DNA of 27,638 nt from a bacterium (GTDB taxonomy: Bacteria > Hydrothermota > Tepidihabitantia > Tepidihabitantales > Tepidihabitantaceae). A program made the translations under genes and the position numbers. Shown here piece after piece: positions 6,422 through 18,617 of the stretch. The stretch spans positions 1 to 27,638 of the forward strand of contig JAWOHE010000013.1 of NCBI GenBank assembly GCA_046485285.1, read 5' to 3'. Every line of letters starts with the position of its first letter. The stretch's first letter is position 1. The notes under the pieces were generated by a model that was not told the origin of the DNA, did not search any database, and saw only the letters and a list, made by a program, of their open reading frames with translations.

Positions 6422-6978
6422 CACTCTTCCTTCCGGTACCTGGCCACGCCCTCGTCGTAGAGGTCCCGGCCGCTCGGGTCGTTGACAACGATGGCCGGGA
6501 AGTCCTCGACCTCGAGCTCGCGGACCGCCTCCGGCCCGAGCTCGTCGTAGGCGATGACCTTCGCCGCCTTGATGCTCCTCGAGATGAGCGCCGCCGCGCC
6601 GCCGACCGCCGCGAAGTACACCGCCCGGTACTGCCTGATGGCGTCAAGCACCGGCTGGGTGCGGTTGCCCTTGCCGATCATTCCCTTGAGGCCGCGGGCG
6701 AGTAGCGTCGGCGTGTACTTGTCCATCCGGTAGCTGGTCGTCGGCCCGGCCGAGCCGATCGGCCGGCCGGGCGGCGCCGGTGACGGCCCGACATAGTAGA
6801 TGATCGCGCCCTCGAGGTCGAAGGGCGGCTTCTCGCCCTTCTCGAGCGTCTCGACCAGCCGCGCGTGGGCGAGGTCGCGGCCTGTGTAAATCCTGCCGGT
6901 AATCAGCACCGCGTCGCCGGCCGCGAGGCCCGCGATGGTCTCGTCGGTCAGCGGGGTCCGGATTCGCTTGGCTGCCAT
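6421..6978 (-). CDS. Class I fumarate hydratase (Fe-S hydro-lyase), beta subunit
   Basis: TGRDLAH, YYVGP, GPTTSYRMD, MIGKG, GGAAAL, LGPEA. Confidence 0.93.
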   Translation of the reverse strand: MAAKRIRTPLTDETIAGLAAGDAVLITGRIYTGRDLAHARLVETLEKGEKPPFDLEGAIIYYVGPSPAPPGRPIGSAGPTTSYRMDKYTPTLLARGLKGMIGKGNRTQPVLDAIRQYRAVYFAAVGGAAALISRSIKAAKVIAYDELGPEAVRELEVEDFPAIVVNDPSGRDLYDEGVARYRKEE

Positions 6979-6990
6979 CTCGCGCCTCCG

Positions 6991-7833
6991 CTAGAGCGTC
7001 GCGGTCATGTGCCGGGCCGCGTGGCAGTTGATGTTCACCGCGCAGGGCATCGTCGCGATGTGGCACGGGAACGCCTCGATGAACACGGCCAGGGCGGTCA
7101 CCGAACCGCCAAGGCCCTGGGGACCGATGCCGAGCCGGTTGATCCGCTCGAGCAGGTCGGCCTCGAGCCGGGCGTAGAACGGGTCCGGGTGGACCGAGCC
7201 GACCTCGCGCAACAGCGCCCTCTTCGCCAGCATCGCGCACTTGTCGAACGGCCCGCCGATGCCGACGCCGACGAGGACCGGCGGACAGGGGTTTGCCTTC
7301 GACCGCGCGACCCGGTCAACGACGAACTTCCTGATGCCCTCTTCCCCGTCCGCGGCCGACAGCATCCGCACCTCGCTCATGTTCTCGCTGCCACCGCCCT
7401 TGGGCTGGACCGTCAGCTTGAGCCGGTCGCCGGGCACGATGTCGGTGTAGATCACCGCCGGGGTATTGTCGCCGGTGTTCTTGCGCCGCAGCGGGTCGGC
7501 GACGATGCTCTTGCGCAGGTAGCCGTCGGTGTAGCCCTTCGCGACGCCCTCGTTGATGGCGTCGGGAAGCTCCCCGCCGGCAACCCGGACCCCGGAGCCG
7601 AGCTCGACCCAGACCACTGCCCAGCCGGTGTCCTGGCAGGCCGGCAGGCGCTCGGCGCGGGCGATCTTCGTGTTCTCGACGATCTGGCCGAGGATCTCCC
7701 GCCCGGTCGGCGACTCCTCGACCGCGATGCTCTTCTCGAGCGCCGCGACGACGTCGGCCGGGATCTCGCAGTTGGCGTCAATGCACAGCCGGGCGACGGT
7801 GTCGCGGACGAGGTTGAAGGGGATCTCGCGCAA
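6991..7833 (-). CDS. Class I fumarate hydratase (Fe-S hydro-lyase), alpha subunit
   Basis: CQDTG, LRKSIV.DP, NTGDNTP, KGGGSEN, NPCPP, HIA, NCHAARH. TTG start with AAGGAG SD. Confidence 0.93.
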   Translation of the reverse strand: MREIPFNLVRDTVARLCIDANCEIPADVVAALEKSIAVEESPTGREILGQIVENTKIARAERLPACQDTGWAVVWVELGSGVRVAGGELPDAINEGVAKGYTDGYLRKSIVADPLRRKNTGDNTPAVIYTDIVPGDRLKLTVQPKGGGSENMSEVRMLSAADGEEGIRKFVVDRVARSKANPCPPVLVGVGIGGPFDKCAMLAKRALLREVGSVHPDPFYARLEADLLERINRLGIGPQGLGGSVTALAVFIEAFPCHIATMPCAVNINCHAARHMTATL

Positions 7834-7843
7834 CTCGACTCCT

Positions 7844-8500
7844 TTACAGCGCCTGGTCGAGGAGCCAGATTTCCGGCTCCTCGGGCAGCCGGTCGGCGTC
7901 CAACTCCACCTCGGCGGTGCCGGTGCGCGTGAGCCGGGCCTGGTCGGCCAGGAACTCGTCGACCGGCGCGATCTTGAAACCGAGCCTTGAGGTCTTGAAG
8001 TGCATCGGGACGATGACCCGGGCCTCGAGTTGGCGGGCGACCGTGTGGGCGCCGCGGGCGTCGAGCGTGTACACCCCGCCGACCGGGACGAGGATGACGT
8101 CGACCGCCCCGATTGCCGTGGCCAGGTCCGCGCCCAGCGCGTGGCCGAGGTCGCCGCAGTGGCAGACCCTGAGCCCGTCGGCCTCGAACACGTAGATCAC
8201 GTTCGCGCCGCGCTTGGCGCCGTTCTCGCCGTCGTGCCAGGAATGGAAACCCCGGACCGTGAACGCGCCGATGCTGAACTCGCCGGTGCCGTTGACCAGC
8301 CGCGGGTTGCCGGGCAGGGTCGCGAACCCGGCGTGGTCAGGGTGGTCGTGGCTGACCGTCACGCCGTCGGCCGGCTCGGTGATGCGGCCGTAGCCGAGCG
8401 CGCCGTCGTAGCTGCCGGCGACGTACGGGTCGGTCAGCAGCCGGGTGCCGTCAGCCGCGACCAGCAGGAAGGCCGAGTGGCCCAGCCACTTGAGCTTCAT
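7844..8500 (-). CDS. MBL-fold metallo-hydrolase
   Basis: WLGHSAF, DPY, SHDHPDH, HCGDLGH, PVGG, PMH. Confidence 0.92.
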   Translation of the reverse strand: MKLKWLGHSAFLLVAADGTRLLTDPYVAGSYDGALGYGRITEPADGVTVSHDHPDHAGFATLPGNPRLVNGTGEFSIGAFTVRGFHSWHDGENGAKRGANVIYVFEADGLRVCHCGDLGHALGADLATAIGAVDVILVPVGGVYTLDARGAHTVARQLEARVIVPMHFKTSRLGFKIAPVDEFLADQARLTRTGTAEVELDADRLPEEPEIWLLDQAL

Positions 8501-8507
8501 CGCGCGG

Positions 8508-8771
8508 TCAGTCGGTCCCGGCCGGCACGACCGTCACCCGCTGCTTGACGCGGCTGACGTACTCGAACTTGACCTTGCCGTCGGCGACCGCGTAGAGCGT
8601 GTCGTCCTTGGCGCGTCGGACGTTCGCGCCGGGCAGGAACTTCGTCCCGCGCTGGCGGACGATGATCCCGCCGGCCCGGATGCTCTCCGACGCATAGGCC
8701 TTGATGCCCAGGCGCTGGCCCTGGCTGTCGCGGCCGTTCTTGGCTGTGCCGCCGCCCTTCTTTTTCGACAT
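8508..8771 (-). CDS. rpmA: 50S ribosomal protein L27
   Basis: [24 protein letters not shown]...[14 protein letters not shown]...DDTLYA..DGKVKF, with AAGGAG SD. Confidence 0.97.
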
Positions 8772-8830
8772 CAGGATTCTCCTTGATTGCGTGCTTTCAC
8801 AGCGTGCCCGAGGCACGATTTCAACCGGGA

Positions 8831-8858
8831 ATTATAGACCCGCTCCCGAGAGTGTCAA
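8831..8858 (-). promoter_or_regulatory. Consensus sigma70 promoter of the rpmA operon
   Basis: TTGACA-16-TATAAT. Confidence 0.85.
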
Positions 8859-8880
8859 CCGGTCGCGGTCCGGGACGCAC

Positions 8881-8904
8881 CGGGGCGGGCTCGCGCCCGC
8901 CCCG
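8881..8904 (-). terminator. Hairpin downstream of the Omp28-like gene
   Basis: 10-bp perfect stem CGGGGCGGGC/GCCCGCCCCG with GCGA tetraloop on the minus strand. No U-tract. Confidence 0.5.
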
Positions 8905-8928
8905 AATGTCCTGCCCGGCCGGCTGCGG

Positions 8929-9975
8929 TCAGTCGGCCAGCACGAACTTGCCCTGCGCGGTCCCGTCCGACGCGGTCAGCCGCCAGGCGTAGATCCCGGC
9001 CGCCAGCCGGCGACCGGCGGCATCGCGGGGCTCCCAGCGCACGGTCTCGGGACCCCGGGCCGTGCCGGACTCCTCCGCCACCAGCCGCCCGGCGCTCGAA
9101 TACACTGCGAGCTGCCAACGCGAGCCGGGGGCGGCAGTGAACCTGACCTCAGCCCGGTCGCGGACCGGGTTCGGACCGCCGGTCGCGCTGAGCCGGGGCG
9201 CCGGCGTCCGCCGCCCTTCCGCGACGCCGGTGAGTTCGAGCAGCTTGACGATTCCGCCCTGATAGACCGGCCGCGAGGAATCGGACTGCTGGGTGGGATT
9301 CTGGAGGAACACGACGAGGTTGCAGTTGGCCTCGACCCAGTCGCTCTCGATCGTGAACGGCTGATACGCGGTGTCCGCGCCCATCGCCGGGACGGTGACA
9401 CTCGTGCCGGCGATGCCGGTGACGTAGTCGCGGCAGACGTGGTTGTGCCACTGGTCGCCGTTCGGCGCCGGGGAATTGATGCTGTCCTCGGTGATGACGA
9501 CGTACAGATTGGCGTCAATCGGCGCTGAAGTCTCGTTCACCATCTCGATTGCCAACTCGCCCGCACCGGCCCCGGGCAGGTAACTGCCGGTCAGGTTAAT
9601 GCCGACCTCGGCCGGCTCGCCGAGCTTCTGCTGGACCCAGTAGTCCCACGACGAATACTGGTAGCCGCGGTTCTTGCCGTCGATCCAGGCCCACGGCGTC
9701 GCGTAGTACCAGTTGCCGCCCGAGTAGTAGGGCGGCGGGTAGCTGAACCAGCGCTGCCGCGCCTCGGCGCAGTAGAGCGGATAGCCGGAGTTGACGTGCC
9801 ACTCGATGGCCGCGATCTGGCCCGGGTAGTTCGCCTTGATCTGGTCCACCGCCACACTGGCGGCGTTGCAGCTGCCTCAGCCTTCGGAGTAGGCCTCTTC
9901 GATGACCACGACCCGGTCAAAGCCGAAGCCGACAACGACACAGGCAAGCAGGGCAGCGACAATCAGCTTCTGCAC
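8929..9975 (-). CDS. Omp28-related thioredoxin-fold selenoprotein (UGSC) with C-terminal T9SS/FlgD-like domain, 348 aa
   Basis: AGGAGG SD and GTG 9975; signal peptide; RVVVIEEAYSEG-U(TGA 9877-9879)-GSC in frame with the 8929..9855 ORF; IEWH, TPWAWIDG, LYVVITED, HNHVCRD, VVFLQN; C-terminal PNP...AGRLV...AGIY. Confidence 0.88.
9847..9865 (-). promoter_or_regulatory. Putative bacterial SECIS hairpin
   Basis: CGCCGCCA-GUG-UGGCGGUG. The loop follows 19 nt after UGA and begins with G. Confidence 0.7.
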
Positions 9976-10009
9976 GGTTCCTCCTGTTCGGTCGGGATTG
10001 CGCACAATC

Positions 10010-10039
10010 AATATACCGCAGCCGGCACGCGCCTGTCAA
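10010..10039 (-). promoter_or_regulatory. sigma70 promoter of the Omp28-like selenoprotein gene
   Basis: TTGACA-18-TATATT. Confidence 0.65.
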
Positions 10040-10045
10040 GCCCGG

Positions 10046-11443
10046 TCAGCGGCGTGGCCGGGCGCGGAAGGCGTGGAGAAAGACTTCCTTGTTGTAGTTG
10101 AGCCGGTTGAGCGCGAAAGTCCCGAGCACCTGCACCGTCCGGACCACCGTCCGACTGCGCCGCTCCTGGATCCGGGCCAGCAGCGGCAGGCAGGCGAAGC
10201 GGGCGAGCCCGCTGACCAAGAACAGGAGGTGGTAGTTGACGAAGGTCCGGCCGAAGAGCTCGAGCCGGAACCCGGCGAGAGCCTGGGCGATCGCCCCGCC
10301 CGCCAGCGACGCGGCGAAGGTCGCCAGCCCGACGACGACCCCGTAGATCGCGAAGTAGCTCTCCTTGCGCACCGGGTTGTCGCCGAGCGCGAACAGCAGG
10401 TTGACCAGCCCGAGGTTGGCCCCGGTCCAGAACAGGCCGTTGAGCACGCCGTCAATCCAGATCGGCAGCCGGAACGTCGGCGTCGCGATCACCCAGAGCA
10501 GCGGCATCACGCCGACGAACGCAAAGCTGATGACCGCGGCCGGCTTCGGGCCGAAGCGGTCGATGTGCCAGCCCCAGAAGAGCTGGAACAGGATACCGGT
10601 CGTCCCGCCGAGGATGGCGTAGACGCCGACCGAGCTGAATGAGAACTGGAGGTTGGTCAGGAGGTGCGCCATGTAGAACGGCGAGGCGAGCGTGCAGGTC
10701 AGGAACCAGACCCCGAGAAAGACAATCAGCCGGCGGAACTGGCGCTCCTCGACGAGCGGCCCGAGCAGCCGCTCGCGCAGCGGCACGTGCGGCCGCGGCA
10801 CCAGCGGCGGCTCGGGCTGGCGCGCGAGCAGCAGCGCCGACGCGACCCCGAACGCGACCGCGAGCAGGTAGGCGAGCCCGAAGCCGAGGTCCGGGTCGTG
10901 GGTCTTGACCCAGTCCATCGCCCGGCCGGCCAGGACGGTCAGCACCATCCCGATGCCGCCGAGGATGGCGTTGCGCCGGCCGAAGAACCGGCCCCGGCCA
11001 TCCTCGGGCACGAGGTCGCTCATCCACGAATTCCAGGTCGTCCCCGCGAACGCGAGCAGGACGTTATAAGCGAAGACGACGGTGAAGAACAGCCCAAGTC
11101 CCAGCTCGAGCTTCAGCAGTAGGTACGGCACCAGGACGATGAACGCCGCCCGGCCGACCCCGCTCGTCCAGACCGTCAGCCCGCGCCGGGACCCGGCGCG
11201 CCGGACGAGCGACCCGGCCGCGAGCGCGACGACCGAGACCAGCGCCGGTATCGCGGCGAGGAGCCCGATGTGGAACGGCCGGGCGCCGAGGTGGAGCGCC
11301 AGCCCGGTCAAGAACATCCCGCCCGCCAGCACGAGGTGGCTGTTGGCGAACGCGCCCTCGACGATCGAGATCCGAAGGCCGCGCCGAACTTCCGCCGGGC
11401 TCAGCCCGACGGCCCCGGCCGCCGGCCCGGGTTCGCCGCTCAC
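10046..11443 (-). CDS. MFS transporter
   Basis: About 12 hydrophobic segments, WMSDLVP..RGRFFG.RN, WGWHIDRFGPK. GTGA overlap with the lipA stop. Confidence 0.9.
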   Translation of the reverse strand: MSGEPGPAAGAVGLSPAEVRRGLRISIVEGAFANSHLVLAGGMFLTGLALHLGARPFHIGLLAAIPALVSVVALAAGSLVRRAGSRRGLTVWTSGVGRAAFIVLVPYLLLKLELGLGLFFTVVFAYNVLLAFAGTTWNSWMSDLVPEDGRGRFFGRRNAILGGIGMVLTVLAGRAMDWVKTHDPDLGFGLAYLLAVAFGVASALLLARQPEPPLVPRPHVPLRERLLGPLVEERQFRRLIVFLGVWFLTCTLASPFYMAHLLTNLQFSFSSVGVYAILGGTTGILFQLFWGWHIDRFGPKPAAVISFAFVGVMPLLWVIATPTFRLPIWIDGVLNGLFWTGANLGLVNLLFALGDNPVRKESYFAIYGVVVGLATFAASLAGGAIAQALAGFRLELFGRTFVNYHLLFLVSGLARFACLPLLARIQERRSRTVVRTVQVLGTFALNRLNYNKEVFLHAFRARPRR

Positions 11444-12375
11444 CGGCCCGCTCTCCTGCCGCCGGGCGCCAGCAGCGTGTCGGCGAGATAGGAACTCCGG
11501 ACCAGCGGCCCGCAGAACGCCGCCCGGAAGCCGAGCGCCCGCGCCTCATCCTCCCACTCCGCGAACCGCTCCGGCGCGACGTGACGCGCCACCGGCCGGC
11601 AGTGCCGCGCCGGCCGCAGGTACTGGCCGATGGTGACGATGTCACAGCCGGCAGTTCTCAGGTCGCGAAGCGCGTGGGAAACCTCTTCGTCGGTCTCGCC
11701 CAGCCCGGCCATCAACCCGCTCTTCGTCGGGATGCCGGGCGCCAGCCGCTTCGCGGTCGCGAGCACCTCGAGCGAGCGGCGATAGCCCGCCCGCCGGTCG
11801 CGCACCTCCGGGCTCAGCCGCTCGACCGTCTCGAGGTTGTGGCCGAACACCGCCGGTCCGGCCGCGAGCACCTGCCCGATGAGCTCCGCCCGGCCGCAGA
11901 AGTCGGGCGTCAGCACCTCAACCCGGACGCCACCCGTTCCTGTCCCCGCATCCTCGCCGCCGGCTTCCGGGTTCCGCGCCCTGACCTCGGACACGGTCCG
12001 GGCGAACTGCCCGGCACCGAGGTCGTCAAGGTCGTCCCGGTCCACCGAGGTCAGCACGACGTAGCGCAGGTCCAGCTCGGCCACCGCCGCCGCCACCCGG
12101 CCCGGCTCGCTCTCATCGACCGCGCCGCCCGGGTTGACGGTCGCGACCGAGCAGAACCGGCAGTTCCGCGTGCAGACCGCGCCAAGAATCATGAAAGTCG
12201 CGGTCCCCCGGTTCCAGCACTCGGCGAGATTCGGGCACCGGGCCGCACTGCAGACCGTCACGAGCCCGTGGGCCCGGAGCCGGGCGTTGACCCGCTCGAA
12301 CTCCTCGCCCTGCGGCAGGCGGGCGCGCAGCCAACGTGGCTTGCCCGCGCGGTCCGGTTCCGGGGCAGGGTTCAT
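11440..12375 (-). CDS. lipA: Lipoyl synthase
   Basis: KPRWLR, CX4CX5C (CSAARCPNLAEC), CX3CX2C (CTRNCRFC), TSVDRDDL, HNLETV, IGQYLRP, RSSY. Confidence 0.96.
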   Translation of the reverse strand: MNPAPEPDRAGKPRWLRARLPQGEEFERVNARLRAHGLVTVCSAARCPNLAECWNRGTATFMILGAVCTRNCRFCSVATVNPGGAVDESEPGRVAAAVAELDLRYVVLTSVDRDDLDDLGAGQFARTVSEVRARNPEAGGEDAGTGTGGVRVEVLTPDFCGRAELIGQVLAAGPAVFGHNLETVERLSPEVRDRRAGYRRSLEVLATAKRLAPGIPTKSGLMAGLGETDEEVSHALRDLRTAGCDIVTIGQYLRPARHCRPVARHVAPERFAEWEDEARALGFRAAFCGPLVRSSYLADTLLAPGGRRAGR

Positions 12376-12397
12376 CGGCGTGACGGGTTAGGGGCGA

Positions 12398-14005
12398 CTA
12401 GGCGCGAATTCTCAGCCCGGACGGCTTGCAGTTCCAGACGCACTCGAAGCAGCGGATGCACTCTGCCTGGTTCGGGTCCTGGTAGGCCGAGATGTTCATC
12501 GGGCAGACCCGCTGGCAGAGCGTGCAGGAAGTGCACCGGTCGCTCACGACCTCCATCCGCAGCAGGCTCACCTTGTTGAACAGCGCATAGACCGCGCCGA
12601 TCGGGCAGACCAGCCGGCAGAACGGCCGCTTGATGCCGATTGCCGCGACGACCACCAGCAACAGGAATCCGACCTTCACCCAGTACAGCCAGCCGACCAG
12701 CCCGCGCAGGGCATTGACCGGGTCCCAGAGCACGAGCGGAATACCGGCGCCGAGCGTCCCCTGAGGGCAGAGCTTGCAGAACCACGGCTCGATGGTCAGG
12801 TAGGAGGCAAGGCCGGCGACGAGCAGCAGCACGGCGTACTTGGCCGTCGTCGAGGGCAAGCTCACCTTCGCCAGCCGGTCCAGCAGCAGGATGACGAGCC
12901 CGGCCGCGGCCGCCAGCGCGATGCCGAGCCCGAACCCGGACAGCGGTCCGATGGCGAACTCCGCCGGCCCGAGCCAGCCGAGCAGGAACGCGGCCGGCAC
13001 GGCAATCGCGGCCGCGACCCAACCGCCGGAAAGCCCGAGGACGAGAATTCCCGCGAACCCGGCGACGACCCCGAAGCCGGCGCCGAACCTCAGCCACGTC
13101 AGTGCGCCGATGCCGACCGCAACGAGGAAACTGCCCACCCAGAGCCGCCTCGGGACGTCGAACTTGCCTGTCAGCGCAACTGCCAGCAGTGCGCCGGCGA
13201 ACGGCAGCCAGCCGAACAGCAACACCTGCCACCACGCCAGCTTGAGCAGCGCGACGAGCAGGAACCCGGCGACCGCCGCGACGCCGGCGATGACGCCGAA
13301 CGACAGCCACTTCTTCGCCTTTGCCCGGCGCCCGACCGGGACCTTCTGGAGCAGGTCCTGCCACAGCCCGAACGGGCATATCCACGCGCAGGCCGCCCGG
13401 CCGACCAGCGCGCCGACGACGATGAACGCGCCCAGCGCCAGCCACGGGATGGTCCTCATCCCGATCATCTGCTGGGTCGAGCCGATCGGGCAGGCGAACA
13501 CCGCCAGCGGCCCGCCATAGCAGTTGAGTATCGGCTGAGGGATGTGCTTGAAGAAGCCCTGGTAGAGAATCTTGTCCTGCAGGTAGGCAAGGATGTAGGC
13601 GTTGAGAACCACCGCCGAGATGACCTGCACGACCCGGAACGGCGCGACCCGCCGCCTGACGAACAGCGTCACGACCAGCATCAGCGCGATGAACGGCAGG
13701 GTCGCGAAGAGCAGCACCCGGGCCGGCGCGATGCCCTCGAAGAAAGCCAGCCAGGCTGAGACCAGCAGCCCGGCCGCGACAATCGCTCCGAACGCGGGCC
13801 AGCGCCGGCGGTCCTCCGGCCGGCCGGCGTAGAGTGCCGCGAAGAGCTCGACCAGCACCAGCGGCAGCCAGCCGAACGCGAGCACCCGCCACCAGTTGAA
13901 GCCGGCGAACGCTACCAGCGCCGCAATCACCAGCGTCGAAAGCCCGGCGATGACGAAGAACCAGGTCCAGCGGACCCTGCCGCCGGACCGCCGGGCGTCA
14001 GTCAA
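12398..14005 (-). CDS. Polytopic membrane 4Fe-4S binding protein (NapH/MauN/RdxA-like)
   Basis: NCYGGP...CPIG, GRAACAWICPFG, FCKLCPQG, RPFCRLVCPIG, CTSCTLCQRVCP, CIRCFECVWNC; many TM helices; TTG start with GGGAG SD. Confidence 0.9.
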   Translation of the reverse strand: MTDARRSGGRVRWTWFFVIAGLSTLVIAALVAFAGFNWWRVLAFGWLPLVLVELFAALYAGRPEDRRRWPAFGAIVAAGLLVSAWLAFFEGIAPARVLLFATLPFIALMLVVTLFVRRRVAPFRVVQVISAVVLNAYILAYLQDKILYQGFFKHIPQPILNCYGGPLAVFACPIGSTQQMIGMRTIPWLALGAFIVVGALVGRAACAWICPFGLWQDLLQKVPVGRRAKAKKWLSFGVIAGVAAVAGFLLVALLKLAWWQVLLFGWLPFAGALLAVALTGKFDVPRRLWVGSFLVAVGIGALTWLRFGAGFGVVAGFAGILVLGLSGGWVAAAIAVPAAFLLGWLGPAEFAIGPLSGFGLGIALAAAAGLVILLLDRLAKVSLPSTTAKYAVLLLVAGLASYLTIEPWFCKLCPQGTLGAGIPLVLWDPVNALRGLVGWLYWVKVGFLLLVVVAAIGIKRPFCRLVCPIGAVYALFNKVSLLRMEVVSDRCTSCTLCQRVCPMNISAYQDPNQAECIRCFECVWNCKPSGLRIRA

Positions 14006-14020
14006 TCGGTTCGCTCCCAG

Positions 14021-14048
14021 GTGCCGGGGCTACACGAGCCCCATGCAC
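14021..14048 (-). promoter_or_regulatory. Putative bacterial SECIS hairpin spanning the stop codon
   Basis: GUGC-AU-GGGGCU-CGUGU-AGCCCC-G-GCAC. The loop follows 17 nt after UGA. Confidence 0.7.
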
Positions 14049-14167
14049 GACAGTCATATCTGGGCCGCGAAGCGGTGAATCGTCTCCGGGTCGCCCTTGA
14101 CTATTCCGATCACGACCGCGGCGACGCCCGCCAGCGCGACCACCGCGAACAGGACGCGGCGCCTCAC
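14030..14167 (-). CDS. 45-aa single-TM selenoprotein (ULSC), CD1871A-like CxxC-motif family
   Basis: GGGAGGG SD and GTG 14167; MRRRVLFAVVALAGVAAVVIGIVKGDPETIHRFAAQI-U(TGA 14054-14056)-LSCMGLV-TAG. Matches the 'ICLxCIG' terminus of small peptides encoded upstream of such 4Fe-4S proteins. Confidence 0.82.
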
Positions 14168-14214
14168 CTGCGTCCCTCCCCGGCCGTCCGCGTCCACCTG
14201 TGCTTCGTTCATTC

Positions 14215-15690
14215 TCAGAACCTCGAGATGAGCTGGGCCTTCACGCCCCGGAACGGCGCCTCGAACCGGCAGACCCCGCCCGAACAGGTGTAGCCGCCGC
14301 GCTCGGCCCCGACCCGGACCCGGAGCATGTTGCGCTGGGTTATCGACCAGACCGCCTCGAACACCGGCCAGCCCTGCTCGCCGTTGTAGCGCTTGTCGAG
14401 CTTCTCGCTGACGTGCTGGTAGCCGACCGTGAACAGGAGCGCCTCGTCGATGCCGTAGGAGAACGCCGCCGCCAGCTCGCGGTACTTCCAGGTCTCGCCC
14501 TCGGTCGAGCGCTCGTCGACGAACGCTAGCTCACCCTCGAGCGCGAAGCTGTGCCGGCCGACGGCGTGGTTCAGGTGGACCACCGGCTTGTCGGTCGCCC
14601 GGTGGGCGGTGCCGAGCTCGACGTTCTGCTGGACCATGTGGTTGAACGCCAGCTCGAACGTCCAGTCGCTGGTCGGATAGCGCGCCTTGCCCTCCCACTC
14701 GACCACGCCCGCGCTGGTGTTGTCGTGGGTGAACAGCCGGCCGTAGTCGGCCTCGAGGTAGAGCGTCGACCACGGCGTCGTGGTCGCGGTCACCCCGAAC
14801 CCGCGCTCGTCGACCCCGCGGTTCATCGCCACCCCGGACTTTGTCGGCGTCGGCGGGTCGTTCCAGTGGTAGAGCCCGGCCGGGAACCCGATGTTGTCGT
14901 AGTCCATCAACTGGCCGAGCACGCTGAACCCCGGGAACGTCACCGTCCCGCTCGCGTACCAGCCGAGCCCGCTCTCCCGCCCGCCCAGCCCGGCCGCGGT
15001 CCCCAGCCGGCGGCAGACCTCGCCGTACACCTCGACCGGCCCGACCGCCGAGGTCAGGTTGCCGCCGAAGAGCTCGGTGAACGCCCGCGCCTGCGGGTCG
15101 CTCTCGCGGTTGACGCGGACGTAGCGCCCGCCGAACCCACCCCACCGGGCCGGCCGCGACTCGAAATTCGCGCCCAGCACCTGGTCGGAGGTGTCCGCGG
15201 CGTTCACCAACCGGTAGGTGTTCTCCTGGAAGAATATGTCGCGCAGCCGCGCGCCGAGCAGGACCAGCTCGGACCGGAACGGCAGCCGCGCGGTCCCGCG
15301 CAGGCCGTGCAGGCTCTTGTAGTGCCGGAACTCGTCGTCCTTGTAGGCCCGGAGCGCCAAACCCTTGCCGAAATCCTGGTAGAACCGGCCGTAAAGCACC
15401 TCGAGCTGCTTCGGGCTGTAGGCGACGGTGTAGTCAAGCAGGCGGAGCGGCCGACGGGCGTCGCTCCACGGCTTCGACGGCTCGTAGGCGAACAGCCCGA
15501 GGTTGCCGCGTAGGTCGCCGTAGCGCAGGTTCATATCGAGCAGCTCCTCGAGCTGGGTCGAGAACGTCGAGTCGAAAAAAGACCAGAACTCGGCCCGGTT
15601 CACGCCGCTGACCGACAGCTCGGCCGCCCGGGCCGGGCCCAGGACGGCGAGACACGCAACCGCGAACAGGCTGACCCTGACTGCCTTCAT
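14215..15690 (-). CDS. DUF6029-like outer-membrane beta-barrel protein
   Basis: Signal peptide, GRFYQDFGKGLALR, amphipathic strands, C-terminal RGGYTCSGGVCRFEAPFRG...SRF ending in Phe. Confidence 0.82.
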   Translation of the reverse strand: MKAVRVSLFAVACLAVLGPARAAELSVSGVNRAEFWSFFDSTFSTQLEELLDMNLRYGDLRGNLGLFAYEPSKPWSDARRPLRLLDYTVAYSPKQLEVLYGRFYQDFGKGLALRAYKDDEFRHYKSLHGLRGTARLPFRSELVLLGARLRDIFFQENTYRLVNAADTSDQVLGANFESRPARWGGFGGRYVRVNRESDPQARAFTELFGGNLTSAVGPVEVYGEVCRRLGTAAGLGGRESGLGWYASGTVTFPGFSVLGQLMDYDNIGFPAGLYHWNDPPTPTKSGVAMNRGVDERGFGVTATTTPWSTLYLEADYGRLFTHDNTSAGVVEWEGKARYPTSDWTFELAFNHMVQQNVELGTAHRATDKPVVHLNHAVGRHSFALEGELAFVDERSTEGETWKYRELAAAFSYGIDEALLFTVGYQHVSEKLDKRYNGEQGWPVFEAVWSITQRNMLRVRVGAERGGYTCSGGVCRFEAPFRGVKAQLISRF

Positions 15691-15717
15691 CTTCCTTGAG
15701 TCTTCGCGCCGGGGCCG

Positions 15718-16248
15718 CTACTCGCCCGCATCCTCGGGGCTGTCCAGCGGCTCCTCGGGCAGCCATTTCAGGAACTCGGCCCTGATCTTCGCCTCGTCAC
15801 CCTTCTTGTAGCCGATGTGGGTGTAGACGACCTCGCCCTTGGTGTTAATCAGGTACGAAGTCGGCTTGATGATGATGCCGTACGCGCTCTTGACCTCCTG
15901 CTGCGCGTCGAGCAGGCAGACGTACGGCCACCTCTTCGCCGCGACGAACGCCTTGACCTTGGCCCCGTCCGCCGGCTTGTCCACCGACAGCGCGATTATC
16001 TGCAGGCCGTAGGGCGCGAGCTCCTCGTAGATCGGCACCAGCGCGTCGAGCTCGGCGATGCAGTTCACGCACGGCAGGTCCCAGCACTCCATGTAGACCG
16101 GCCCGCGCTTGAGCATCTCGGACAGCGTGTGCTCCTCGCCGTTCACGTCCGTCAGCGTAAAGTCCTGCGCCTTCTCGTACTTCACCTCGGCGGCGAAAAC
16201 CGGCCCGGCCGCCAGCGCTACCACCACTGCCAGTCCCAACAGCTTCAT
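15718..16248 (-). CDS. TlpA/ResA-like periplasmic thiol-disulfide oxidoreductase
   Basis: Signal peptide, DFTLTD.NG, W..PCVNC..E, LSVD, cis-Pro motif KPTSYLIN; GGAGGTG SD. Confidence 0.92.
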   Translation of the reverse strand: MKLLGLAVVVALAAGPVFAAEVKYEKAQDFTLTDVNGEEHTLSEMLKRGPVYMECWDLPCVNCIAELDALVPIYEELAPYGLQIIALSVDKPADGAKVKAFVAAKRWPYVCLLDAQQEVKSAYGIIIKPTSYLINTKGEVVYTHIGYKKGDEAKIRAEFLKWLPEEPLDSPEDAGE

Positions 16249-16261
16249 CGCAACACCTCCG

Positions 16262-17038
16262 TCATTCCCGCGCCAGCTTGCGCGTCACCACTGTCTGCAT
16301 CACCGCCCGGGTCGCCGTGTCCTGGACGAACACCGCCACCCCGAGCCGGTCCTGGCGCCAGCCCCGGTAGGGCGTCGCCAGCACCGTGTCGAGCTCGGTC
16401 GCGTAACGGAGCCGGACCGGCACGCCCCACGGCCCGCCGATGATGTCCGCCGCGATCGGCACGTACGACGTGTCGGTGCTCCCGAACCGCACCCGCGTCA
16501 CACTGTCCTGGAACACCACCGCCACCAGCATCAGCCCGTCGATATCATCTACCAGCGTGTCGAGCGTGGTAATCCGCACGCCGACCCGCAGTTCGCTGCC
16601 GACGATACCGGTCGCCGCGGTGTCGAGCGCCATCTCGAGCATCGTCTTCCGCGACCGGGCGGCATCGACCCGCGACCGGAGCGCGTCGTAGAGCGTCTCC
16701 TGGAACGCGGCGTCGCCGCCGTCGAAATACGTCACCGGCTCGAAGCCCAGCCCGTAGCCGTACCACTGCGCCCGGCGCAGGGCCGTCACGGTCGCCAGCG
16801 TATCGAACAGCGTATCCGAATGATACGTGAAATAGGCCAGCGAATCGCCGAACTCGTACGACAGCCGTTCAAGAGACCGCTCCGCGGCCTCGCAGTAACT
16901 TCAGCCCGCGCTCGAGAACACCTCGCTCAGCACCACCCGGTTCGCGGCCATGGTGATGAGCGGGGCGATCGAACACTGGGCGGTCAGGCCGAAGACCGCG
17001 GCCGCCGCGGCGAGCGAAAACAATCTGCGTCTGGTCAT
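16262..17038 (-). CDS. Omp28-like thioredoxin-fold selenoprotein (USYC), possible lipoprotein, 258 aa
   Basis: The ORFs 16901..17083 and 16262..16789 share a frame and are joined through a single TGA (16901-16903): RVVLSEVFSSAG-U-SYCEAAE...FTYH...EPVTYFDG...VAVVFQD...VAVFVQD. Signal peptide with LTAQC. Confidence 0.85.
16873..16891 (-). promoter_or_regulatory. Putative bacterial SECIS hairpin
   Basis: GAGGCCGC-GGA-GCGGUCUC. The loop follows 17 nt after UGA and begins with G. Confidence 0.7.
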
Positions 17039-17045
17039 TACAGAT

Positions 17046-17074
17046 ATGCTAAAAGACCCGACCGAGTGAGTCAA
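17046..17074 (-). promoter_or_regulatory. sigma70 promoter of the redox operon, leaderless
   Basis: TTGACT-17-TAGCAT, with ATG 17038 seven nt downstream and no SD. Confidence 0.65.
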
Positions 17075-17093: not shown

Positions 17094-18617
17094 CTACTCC
17101 GGCCTGACCACTTTCACCCGCTCAACCCGCTCGCCCGAGTCCACCAGGCAGTAGTACACCCCCGGGGGACGGTCGCCGAGCGCAACGCTGACGACGTGCT
17201 GTCCTGGCCCGAGCCGGCCCCGGTACAGCCGCCCGCCGGCCCGCCCCCCGGCGTCGAACAGGGTGATGCTCACGTCCGCGGACGCGGCCAGTCCAAACCG
17301 CAGTATCGCGACCCCGCCGCGACTGACGACCGCCGCCTGCCCGGACCCGGGCCGGGACGGCCGTTGCTCCTCGATCGCCGTGAAGTGGTAGCCGTCAAAC
17401 CAGACTTGGTCGGTATCCAGCTTCGCATATCCAAGGTACCCGCCGCTGGTCAGCCAGGAGTATCCCACCTGCGCGCCGATGCCCAGCACCATCCGGAAGT
17501 CGTTGCGCACACCCCGCCCCTCCCAGACATTCGGTCCGACCGGGCGCGAGTAGGCGTACACCAGCGAGTCGCGGTTGCGGGTCGGCTCGGGCATCGTCGC
17601 CGCGCCGCGGAAGAGGTCGTCGGCGTATCCCCGGCGCACGCGCGGGAGCCTCGCGTCCCAGGTCACCCGCGTCTGGTTCACCGGCGGCCAGAACCCGGTG
17701 GTCCACCCCGCGCCGCCATTCGTCGTCCAGCCCTGGCCGACCCCGACGATGCTGTCGGCAACGCTGCTGCAGTAAAGCACCACCGCCGCCTGCGCCGTGC
17801 GCCCGGCCTCCCGGTCCGCAGCGACCGACGCCGCCCACACCCGCCCGTTGCCGGCCGAGTCGAGCCGGGCGACCGCCGAGTCCGCGCCTGCGAGGTTCTC
17901 GGTGTAGCGTGTGACCTGCACCCACGCCGAGTCCCGGCTGTTGCAGGCGAGGTACACGCAGCCGTCCCCGCCCGCAGCCAGCGCCGGCAACTCGCAGCCG
18001 GTCGCGGCGACCCGGTGGTTGCCCCAGGTCTGGCCCGAGTCGCTCGAGGCGGCGAGGTGTATCTCTCCCGCCTGCGTCTCCCAGGCCGCGAACAGACGCT
18101 GGGGCGACTCGATGTTCAGATCTGCCGCAACCCGCACGACGGTGTCACTGCCCGGCACGTGGATCCATGCCGGGCTGACCATCATCGGCCGGTGCCGCAG
18201 CAGCCAGAGGCCGATGCCCGGTGGGTTGCCGACCAGCAGGTCGTAGAGCCAGGTGCCGTTAGCGTCACTGCCCACCCGGAGCTCGTAGTCCGCGAACGAC
18301 GCGAACGGGTCGTCGGGGGCAATCTCGTAGGCAGTCGTCCAGCTCCAGCCTCCGTCGGTCGATCGCCAGACGTGGACCCGGTCACCCGGGCCGCCGCCCG
18401 GCTCGAGCAGGCCGACGTAGATGGTGCCGGCCGTGTCCGAGTCAGTGACCAGCTTGCCGGTTGTAAGCGCGCGGCCGACCGCGCCGACCAGCACGTCGTC
18501 GCCCCAGTCGCGCATCGTGTCGGCGAGGACCCGGACTTCAGGGGCGTGGCAGTACTCCACCCGCCCGGACGGCACGTGGTAGACAGGGAAAGCGCAGAGC
18601 AGGACCATCAGCAGCAC
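17094..18617 (-). CDS. Secreted BNR/Asp-box beta-propeller protein with T9SS-like C-terminal domain
   Basis: Asp-boxes RSTDGGWSW, SSDSGQTW, TTNGGAGW; C-terminal LFDAGGR...PGVYY...KVV; AGGAGG SD. Confidence 0.8.
   Translation of the reverse strand: MLLMVLLCAFPVYHVPSGRVEYCHAPEVRVLADTMRDWGDDVLVGAVGRALTTGKLVTDSDTAGTIYVGLLEPGGGPGDRVHVWRSTDGGWSWTTAYEIAPDDPFASFADYELRVGSDANGTWLYDLLVGNPPGIGLWLLRHRPMMVSPAWIHVPGSDTVVRVAADLNIESPQRLFAAWETQAGEIHLAASSDSGQTWGNHRVAATGCELPALAAGGDGCVYLACNSRDSAWVQVTRYTENLAGADSAVARLDSAGNGRVWAASVAADREAGRTAQAAVVLYCSSVADSIVGVGQGWTTNGGAGWTTGFWPPVNQTRVTWDARLPRVRRGYADDLFRGAATMPEPTRNRDSLVYAYSRPVGPNVWEGRGVRNDFRMVLGIGAQVGYSWLTSGGYLGYAKLDTDQVWFDGYHFTAIEEQRPSRPGSGQAAVVSRGGVAILRFGLAASADVSITLFDAGGRAGGRLYRGRLGPGQHVVSVALGDRPPGVYYCLVDSGERVERVKVVRPE

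Follow-up and report, generated by a model that had tools for sequence, protein, structure and literature searches.

A conserved gene cluster with three predicted selenoproteins in candidate division WOR-3: a possible envelope thiol/selenol oxidoreductase system

Organization of the Gene Cluster

We analyzed a window of 27,638 nucleotides (nt) from an uncultured WOR-3 bacterium (contig JAWOHE010000013.1 of assembly GCA_046485285.1), which carries a cluster of eight genes running from position 17038 to position 8929, all of them on the minus strand, as are the other features of the window described below. In their order, these genes encode an Omp28/HBP35-like protein with a USYC motif (258 amino acids, aa; U stands for selenocysteine, Sec), a TlpA/ResA-like protein (176 aa), a beta-barrel of the DUF6029 family (491 aa), a small membrane peptide, a NapH-like membrane protein (535 aa), the lipoyl synthase LipA, a transporter of the major facilitator superfamily (MFS), and a second Omp28-family protein, with a UGSC motif. 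The TlpA/ResA-like, DUF6029, NapH-like, LipA, and MFS assignments are supported by Pfam and NCBIfam searches, and an Rfam search of the window gave no relevant match. As claimed in an earlier note on this DNA, the genes are co-oriented and tightly spaced, with gaps of 2–34 nt (13, 27, 2, 24, and 22 nt in succession, then a 4-nt overlap of lipA with the MFS gene, and then 34 nt).

The earlier note also placed promoters at two positions, and sigma-70-like sequences stand exactly there, both as pattern matches only. The first (TTGACT-17-TAGCAT, 17046..17074, 9/12) ends 7 nt upstream of the ATG of the first gene, and the second (TTGACA-18-TATATT, 10010..10039, 11/12) sits in the 34-nt gap upstream of the UGSC gene. 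In a simple scan for promoters, the minus strand of the region gave three sigma-70-like sites, with 0.5 expected.

Selenocysteine Codons, Hairpins, and Decoding Machinery

Each of the three UxxC genes contains an in-frame TGA codon, and once this codon is read as U, the fragments of all three genes unite into complete proteins. The codons are located at 16901..16903 (U46 of the USYC protein), 14054..14056 (U38 of the peptide), and 9877..9879 (U33 of the UGSC protein). In the two Omp28-like proteins the position is occupied by U in orthologues and by Cys in paralogues, which have CSYC for USYC and CTYC for UGSC, and in the peptide either U or C fills one column of the invariant motif [U/C]LSCMG. 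In three relatives, a pair of Cys-type Omp28-like genes (approximately 600 and 250 aa) lies side by side elsewhere in the genome, and these two genes are the Cys paralogues of the two Omp28-like Sec proteins.

Conservation of the TGA codons was assessed in 40 relatives, which belong to five families of the order. Among the matches of the UGSC protein at E ≤ 1e-50, 32 of 33 carry one in-frame TGA, the 33rd starting past the motif, and the closest 14 matches of the USYC protein each carry one as well. In a set of 20 loci, U was present in 18/18 orthologues with the U-x-[YF]-C motif and in 12/12 with U-x-[ST]-C, and in 78 further loci, scored by pattern, it was found in 52 of 54 proteins of the USYC type and 26 of 27 of the UGSC type; both USYC-type misses likewise show U by eye. 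The 20-locus and 78-locus sets share genomes and are not independent. Overall, the TGA is retained among orthologues down to 34% identity. The peptide lies between the barrel and NapH-like genes in all 20 loci (13 U and 7 C in the same column of [U/C]LSCMG) and occurs in 66 of the 74 loci of a wider set, divided into 34 Sec and 32 Cys forms.

A hairpin resembling a selenocysteine insertion sequence (SECIS) was found 3' of each TGA, the apical loops being located 21–25 nt from the U of UGA. In the USYC gene the hairpin occupies 16873..16891 (nt 13–31 after the U of UGA) and has a GGA apical loop and a 7-bp stem (nt 14–30), five of the seven pairs of which show compensatory changes among 40 orthologues. 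The hairpin of the peptide gene (14021..14048) spans the UAG stop codon and extends into the 3' untranslated stretch; two of its five core pairs are compensatory in 21 sequences, and one of these joins the third position of a Gly codon with a non-coding base. The UGSC gene has a hairpin at 9847..9865 (nt 15–33 after the U of UGA) with the conserved stem CCAGY/RCUGG, where one of four pairs is compensatory in 25 sequences. Single-sequence folding energies 3' of the TGA codons were no better than those of shuffled sequences in this GC-rich DNA; the case for SECIS elements therefore rests on the covariation.

The genome, the assembly of which is 88% complete, encodes the full machinery for Sec decoding, and thus all four genes that the earlier note proposed to search for were found. 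SelA (537.7 bits), SelB (357.5 bits), and SelD (334.8 bits) are all above the curated cut-offs, as is tRNA-Sec (73.2 bits), to which ARAGORN assigns the anticodon TCA. The selD gene (contig 37, 9674-10585), which adjoins selB (10662-12542), itself holds one in-frame TGA, and SelD is therefore probably a selenoprotein in this organism.

The retained TGA codons, aligned Cys forms, covarying hairpins, and decoding genes bear out the three hidden UxxC selenoproteins suggested earlier, and as far as sequence can tell their identity as genuine selenoproteins is established. Annotation of WOR-3 genomes thus misses a conserved set of Sec proteins. The earlier note further expected that standard annotation would fragment members of the system, and for the peptide this was seen directly: all 17 non-window matches in public protein collections end at the TGA (...HRFAAQI), giving 37-aa products that are named hypothetical protein or left unnamed.

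The Omp28/HBP35-Like Selenoproteins

The first selenoprotein, encoded at 16262..17038, is predicted to be a lipoprotein, since an invariant Cys22-Ser pair, with Cys22 as the lipobox residue, follows its signal sequence. Four residues (C22, S23, U46 as the Cys column, and C49) are invariant in 29 aligned sequences. Its AlphaFold (AF2) model (mean predicted local distance difference test, pLDDT, 87.2) consists of a thioredoxin fold followed by a beta-sandwich and has U46 at the N-terminal end of helix 1. A Foldseek search with this model ranked the DUF1223 protein 2axo first, followed by HBP35 of Porphyromonas gingivalis (5y1a; TMq 0.70, rmsd 3.6) and then by C-terminal domains of DipZ; a transglutaminase chain took rank 4 and the Omp28 domain 2r2c rank 5 (E 5e-5). 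The protein has no Pfam Omp28 match and reaches 27.2 bits on NF033782 (cut-off 150), and the earlier description of it as Omp28-like holds by fold and not by family score.

The UGSC protein (8929..9975) is the third selenoprotein in gene order and most likely starts at the GTG at 9975, five bases after an AGGAGG, which fits better than the start at 10011 given previously. It belongs to the Omp28 family by Pfam (PF11551, 55.9 bits, cut-off 34.9), whereas its score on NF033782 is 60.6 bits against a cut-off of 150. It shows the full HBP35 architecture, with a thioredoxin-like motif, an Omp28 domain, and a C-terminal domain resembling those used by the type IX secretion system (T9SS), the latter at 19.4 bits on the sorting-domain family TIGR04183 (cut-off 23). 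Used as a query against its own genome, the protein gave 45 matches; those listed, the gene itself aside, cover only its last ~100–145 residues. The genome also has two PorU-like open reading frames (ORFs) scoring 297.9 and 258.2 bits, against a curated cut-off of 420.

Both proteins share with HBP35 (5y1a) and Omp28 (2r2c, PF11551) an active-site dyad within a thioredoxin fold and a beta-sandwich behind it, and the T9SS C-terminal domain and cell-surface location of HBP35 correspond to those proposed for the UGSC protein. The window proteins differ in having Sec in place of the first Cys, in that one copy is a lipoprotein without a sorting domain, and in that their genes are embedded in the cluster with the TlpA, barrel, and NapH-like genes. 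HBP35 is reported to be a T9SS surface protein with a measured thioredoxin activity dependent on its two Cys residues, to reduce insulin in vitro, to bind haemin, and to be needed under haemin limitation (PMC2907840).

A combination of Omp28 type and Sec has already been curated by NCBI in the family NF045500 (Omp28-related selenoprotein). The two window proteins reach 47 and 15.3 bits on this model, against a cut-off of 200, and the cut-off was reached in none of 151 genomes sampled from the phylum, which indicates that the WOR-3 proteins constitute other subfamilies.

The TlpA-Like Protein and the Barrel

The second gene (15718..16248) encodes a periplasmic TlpA/ResA-like thiol-disulfide oxidoreductase with the active-site motif CVNC and a cleavable signal peptide, as read from the sequence. 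It matches the Pfam families AhpC-TSA (70.4 bits) and Redoxin (55.9 bits) and falls below the NCBIfam equivalog cut-offs for ResA and TlpA; its CxxC motif is present in 69 of 70 orthologues. The surroundings of the motif differ by clade, reading WDLPCVNC where the neighboring peptide contains Sec and WALWCKMC where it contains Cys.

The third gene (14215..15690) encodes an outer-membrane beta-barrel of the DUF6029 family (PF19494, 63.9 bits, cut-off 27) with approximately 24 strands and a C-terminal Phe. Its AF2 model (pLDDT 85.4) resembles ushers, TonB-dependent transporters, MtrB, and LptD with a template modeling (TM) score of ~0.5, that is, only as a large barrel. The pair C469-SGGV-C474, invariant in 13/13 aligned orthologues, forms in the model the hairpin joining the last two membrane strands. 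No DUF6029 match was obtained in 14 control genomes, a single Bacteroides among them. In the literature found, the family is mentioned once, as a possible relative of polysaccharide porins (PMC9603273).

The Membrane Peptide and the NapH-Like Protein

The peptide (14030..14167), the second selenoprotein, most likely starts at the GTG at 14167, judging from the sequence, which gives an MRRR N-terminus and a length of 45 aa, as in its orthologues. A single transmembrane (TM) helix follows, and the chain ends in QIULSCMGLV; the K/R-rich N-terminus together with the one helix predicts an N-in/C-out orientation with the UxxC motif on the outer side. At the 10 Cys-type loci listed, the stop codon of the peptide gene overlaps the start codon of the NapH-like gene, which suggests translational coupling. 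The peptide is a distant relative of the CD1871A family (NF040920), with which it shares small size, N-in topology, a position directly before a NapH-like gene, and the ending CxxC-[MIV]-G-[LI]. It scores 26.2 bits on this family (cut-off 32), the WOR-3 Cys forms give no match, and the first Cys of the family is replaced by Sec in 34 of 66 WOR-3 loci. The peptide is among the smallest selenoproteins, and public gene calls cut it at the UGA.

The adjacent gene (12398..14005) encodes a polytopic NapH-like membrane polyferredoxin, identified by Pfam and NCBIfam, with two C-terminal 4Fe-4S motifs. Sixteen Cys residues are invariant in 65 orthologues: C162, C172, C206/C210 (CX3CP), C410/C413 (CxxCP), C463/C467 (CX3CP), and eight ferredoxin residues. 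The motifs are kept by relatives in WOR-3, Anaerolineae, Dehalococcoidia, Sedimentisphaerales, and Clostridia, recorded as polyferredoxin, NapH, or 4Fe-4S binding protein. For a 273-aa minimal form, the NapH topology follows from hydropathy together with the positive-inside rule, the protein having K/R-rich loops: the ferredoxin domain and the two CX3CP motifs, like the N-terminus, are predicted to face the inside, whereas the C162/C172 cluster and the C410/C413 CxxCP motif would lie outside, as would the UxxC of the peptide. A co-fold of residues 117–535 with the 37-aa form of the peptide, which lacks the ULSCMGLV redox end, scored 0.16 against a mark of 0.32.

Compared with the NapH/MauN/NosR type (TIGR02163), the protein has the same core of four helices and the same pairs of cytoplasmic CX3CP and C-terminal 4Fe-4S motifs, yet reaches only 49.7 bits (cut-off 213). 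It differs in two additional invariant outer-face motifs (C-x2-[C/G]-P-x5-CP and CxxCP) and in having a CxxC peptide and TlpA as partners. Neither the cluster nor its surroundings contain nap, mau, or nos genes, the genome beyond the cluster not having been searched for nap. Residue 165 is Gly in 33/33 proteins of the Sec-peptide clade and Cys in 29/31 of the Cys-peptide clade, and Cys165 is present in more than 90% of the wider NapH-like family. This difference and that in the TlpA motif may reflect coincidence or co-adaptation of the partners; because the correlation at residue 165 comes from a single clade split, we did not count it as evidence.

Conservation of the Cluster

When species-representative genomes were searched with the barrel alignment as query, 78 loci were obtained, nearly all labeled candidate division WOR-3 (the rest being one TA06, one Latescibacterota, several Stahlbacteria, and one Coatesbacteria). 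A TlpA gene precedes the barrel gene in all 66 testable loci and is itself preceded by a USYC-type gene in 51 of 63, and a NapH-like gene follows the barrel in 64 of 68. The core order of Omp28-like Sec lipoprotein, TlpA, barrel, [U/C]xxC peptide, and NapH-like protein is therefore conserved across WOR-3. The UGSC-type gene is located downstream of the cluster in the clade of the window and upstream in other clades.

Two members of the gene order proposed earlier did not hold up in the same way. The lipA gene (11440..12375; NCBIfam, 372.6 bits) follows the NapH-like gene in 31/31 Sec-peptide loci and 1/30 Cys-peptide loci, and the MFS gene (10046..11443; Pfam) is a neighbor in 21/26 and 0/28, respectively. 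Being confined to the Sec-peptide clade, they are neighbors by clade rather than core members, and we rejected them as parts of the system.

Outside WOR-3, a metagenome scan with non-WOR-3 NapH-like queries produced 80 loci akin to the Clostridiaceae query, many of them from records labeled gut metagenome. A peptide ending in C[ML]EC[IV]G[IL]G is encoded upstream of the NapH-like gene in 59 of the 72 loci with enough upstream sequence, and four of these peptides score 61–75 bits on the CD1871A family (cut-off 32). A TlpA/ResA-like CxxC protein adjoins the pair in 28 of the 33 loci of at least 9 kb. These partners have a signal or lipoprotein signal and WCxPC motifs, and they are encoded at varying positions, in some loci ahead of the peptide and in others behind the NapH-like gene. 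The expectation that small CxxC peptides precede such 4Fe-4S proteins in anaerobes is thus borne out, with the addition that the pair is joined to a TlpA-like reductase. The adjacency survives rearrangement, and does so in a phylum that lacks an outer membrane, which speaks for a joint function of TlpA, the peptide, and the NapH-like protein. To this trio WOR-3 has added the barrel and the Omp28-like proteins. In the long Clostridia-like loci the trio is also flanked by a divergent histidine kinase (20/33) and a response regulator (19/33); in NCBIfam these come closest to heavy-metal sensor families (197 and 178 bits, both below the cut-off).

Relation to CcdA/DsbD

The trio has several features in common with CcdA/DsbD and its TlpA/ResA/CcmG partners: a membrane component stands beside a periplasmic CxxC protein of the TlpA family, and redox Cys motifs, several of them followed by Pro, are located on both membrane faces. 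Unlike those systems, the cluster has no DsbD_TM domain and instead encodes a NapH-like polyferredoxin with two 4Fe-4S motifs and a separate 45-aa [U/C]xxC peptide.

The earlier note envisaged a path independent of DsbD/CcdA, and the genomic distribution of CcdA answers this in part. CcdA was not found in 12 of the 40 relatives, ten of which are at least 90% complete, and eight of these ten carry the cluster. It is, on the other hand, encoded in the remaining 28 relatives and in the present genome, and the evidence for independence from CcdA is accordingly mixed and does not compel that conclusion. In this genome the single gene is located on contig 68, in a row (6619-10245) of methyltransferase, CcdA, thioredoxin-like, and ArsP-type permease genes, which may form a separate redox or metalloid unit. 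Neither DsbB nor VKOR was found in this genome at its 88% completeness.

Proposed Function and Alternative Interpretations

The interpretation we favor is that an envelope thiol/selenol oxidoreductase system of WOR-3, three of whose members are selenoproteins, is encoded here and passes reducing power outward; we hold it with about as much belief as doubt. Electrons would enter the NapH-like protein at the cytoplasmic face, the two 4Fe-4S clusters and the two CX3CP motifs serving as the entry point, and pass to its four invariant outer-face Cys residues and to the UxxC of the neighboring peptide, which would in turn reduce the periplasmic TlpA. TlpA could then keep two selenoproteins reduced: the Sec lipoprotein, which may sit at or inside the large barrel, and the HBP35-like Sec protein, whose export to the surface would be the task of the T9SS. 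The steps from the NapH-like protein to TlpA would constitute a module common with Clostridia that does the job performed elsewhere by CcdA/DsbD, and the lipA and MFS genes would be bystanders. The family type of TlpA/ResA and the WCxPC motifs of the Clostridial partners favor reduction over oxidation. None of the three findings that the earlier note named as refuting its own reading was made: the Sec machinery is present, the gene order is conserved in WOR-3, and hydropathy predicts the redox motifs to be on compatible sides of the inner membrane.

A bolder version of this proposal takes the NapH-like protein and the Sec/Cys micropeptide as an unrecognized class of transmembrane disulfide (selenylsulfide) reductase that replaces CcdA/DsbD in anaerobes and, in WOR-3, feeds TlpA, from there a Sec lipoprotein docked at the 24-strand barrel, and finally a T9SS-exported Sec-thioredoxin, so that selenium-dependent reducing power would be available at the outer cell surface. 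We put this forward only tentatively, and in its entirety it is more probably wrong than right.

A number of points weigh against outward reduction through the cluster. A single DsbD_TM (CcdA) gene, accompanied by its own thioredoxin, is present on contig 68, and CcdA occurs in 28 of 40 relatives, never beside the cluster where the two could be compared; with CcdA present, TlpA could be fed in the usual way. The NapH proteins known so far act as quinol dehydrogenases, and quinol lacks the reducing strength needed for a TlpA disulfide; electrons would moreover have to cross ~30 Å of membrane within the NapH-like protein. None of the family scores of the peptide, the NapH-like protein, or the USYC protein reaches its curated cut-off. 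The parity of the strands in the model would put the Cys pair of the barrel on the outer side, beyond simple reach of TlpA, and the pair may be a plain structural disulfide. A UGSC-type gene was found near the cluster, within the stretch analyzed, in only 21 of 78 loci. Finally, the relatives are not independent, and the split between Sec and Cys forms of the peptide amounts to one clade boundary.

Electrons could also flow in the opposite direction, the NapH-like protein and peptide acting like DsbB or VKOR to pass electrons from periplasmic thiols, by way of TlpA and the peptide, to quinone or a cytoplasmic acceptor, so that disulfides are formed, for example that of the CSGGVC motif in the barrel, in an anaerobe lacking DsbB. 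We regard this as unlikely. The failure to find DsbB or VKOR in the 88% complete genome and the tight hairpin holding the invariant Cys pair of the barrel, which resembles a structural disulfide, fit such a direction, and NapH-family proteins are generally known to exchange electrons with quinones. The relatives of the second gene product (TlpA, ResA, and DsbE) are, however, reductases, its Clostridial counterparts carry WCxPC motifs typical of reductive enzymes, and UxxC thioredoxin folds at the surface or outer membrane require a reductant for turnover. The reduction of insulin by HBP35 in vitro, reported in PMC2907840, likewise speaks for a reductive role.

An equally low likelihood attaches to the possibility that two separate systems happen to be neighbors, one supplying reductant (TlpA, peptide, and NapH-like protein) and the other, made up of the barrel and the Omp28/HBP35-like proteins, binding and taking up a surface substrate such as haem or a metal, as for HBP35, with TlpA needed at most for maturation. 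Such a division would explain why the Clostridia-like loci have the trio without a barrel or Omp28 and why three distant loci have the TlpA-barrel pair without a NapH-like gene, and it suits both the likeness of the barrel to transport barrels and the binding of haemin by HBP35, which is reported to be needed under haemin limitation (PMC2907840). It does not sit well with the barrel gene of WOR-3, which is inserted between TlpA and the peptide wherever both occur, nor with the catalytic-type UxxC that the Omp28-like proteins keep at the active-site position of thioredoxin.

Handling of metals, metalloids, or sulfur is a still weaker candidate that we consider very improbable. Here the M-C-x-x-C-M end of the peptide would bind Cu(I), Hg, or polysulfide, and the NapH-like protein would be a reductase like CcoG; the likeness to CcoG, and that of the peptide end to metal-binding motifs, are presumed. 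The Met- and Cys-rich peptide motif and the two-component genes at Clostridia-like loci, related to heavy-metal sensor families (197 and 178 bits, below the cut-off), point this way, whereas thiol oxidoreductases typically show such an exchange of Sec and Cys at the first CxxC position and such a constant TlpA partner, and the WOR-3 loci have no conserved metal transporter or chaperone. A reading of the TGA codons as normal stops and of the genes as fragments or pseudogenes, which gene callers adopt and which the 37-aa products, the only records of the peptide, would imply, has next to no likelihood given the coding conservation across the TGA in all orthologues, the Cys forms in the same column, the covarying hairpins, and the full Sec machinery.

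The envelope redox module is plausible, and no earlier description of it was found; it would represent a transmembrane supply of reductant for extracytoplasmic thioredoxins, with new Sec members of known families. We found no paper joining Omp28 with a selenoprotein and none on the CD1871A family or on the trio of TlpA, peptide, and NapH-like protein, the supplements of published papers possibly holding more. The passages found that mention CD1871 describe it either as an ABC permease or as a gene of a conjugative transposon, and in no other way.

If the proposed flow of electrons is correct, reducing equivalents reach extracytoplasmic thioredoxins by a second, iron-sulfur-based route beside CcdA/DsbD, in a module that is widespread in anaerobes (WOR-3 and Clostridia-like gut organisms). 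Export of selenoproteins from the cytoplasm is likewise suggested by the cluster, in one case as a lipoprotein and in another as an HBP35-like T9SS cargo. Such exported selenoproteins bear on how anaerobes keep their surface proteins reduced or reduce external substrates.

Flanking Genes

The ORF upstream of the cluster (17094-18617, minus strand, 507 aa) has no Pfam or NCBIfam match; it contains several S-x-D-x-G-x-[TS]-W repeats that look like Asp boxes by eye, and its C-terminal part resembles T9SS-type tails. On the other side, an ORF at 8816..8508 was read as ribosomal protein L27 (rpmA) from its translation, without a family search. It is preceded by the third of the sigma-70-like sites (8831-8858, minus strand), a perfect 12/12 match (TTGACA-16-TATAAT), which suggests that the organism uses canonical promoters.

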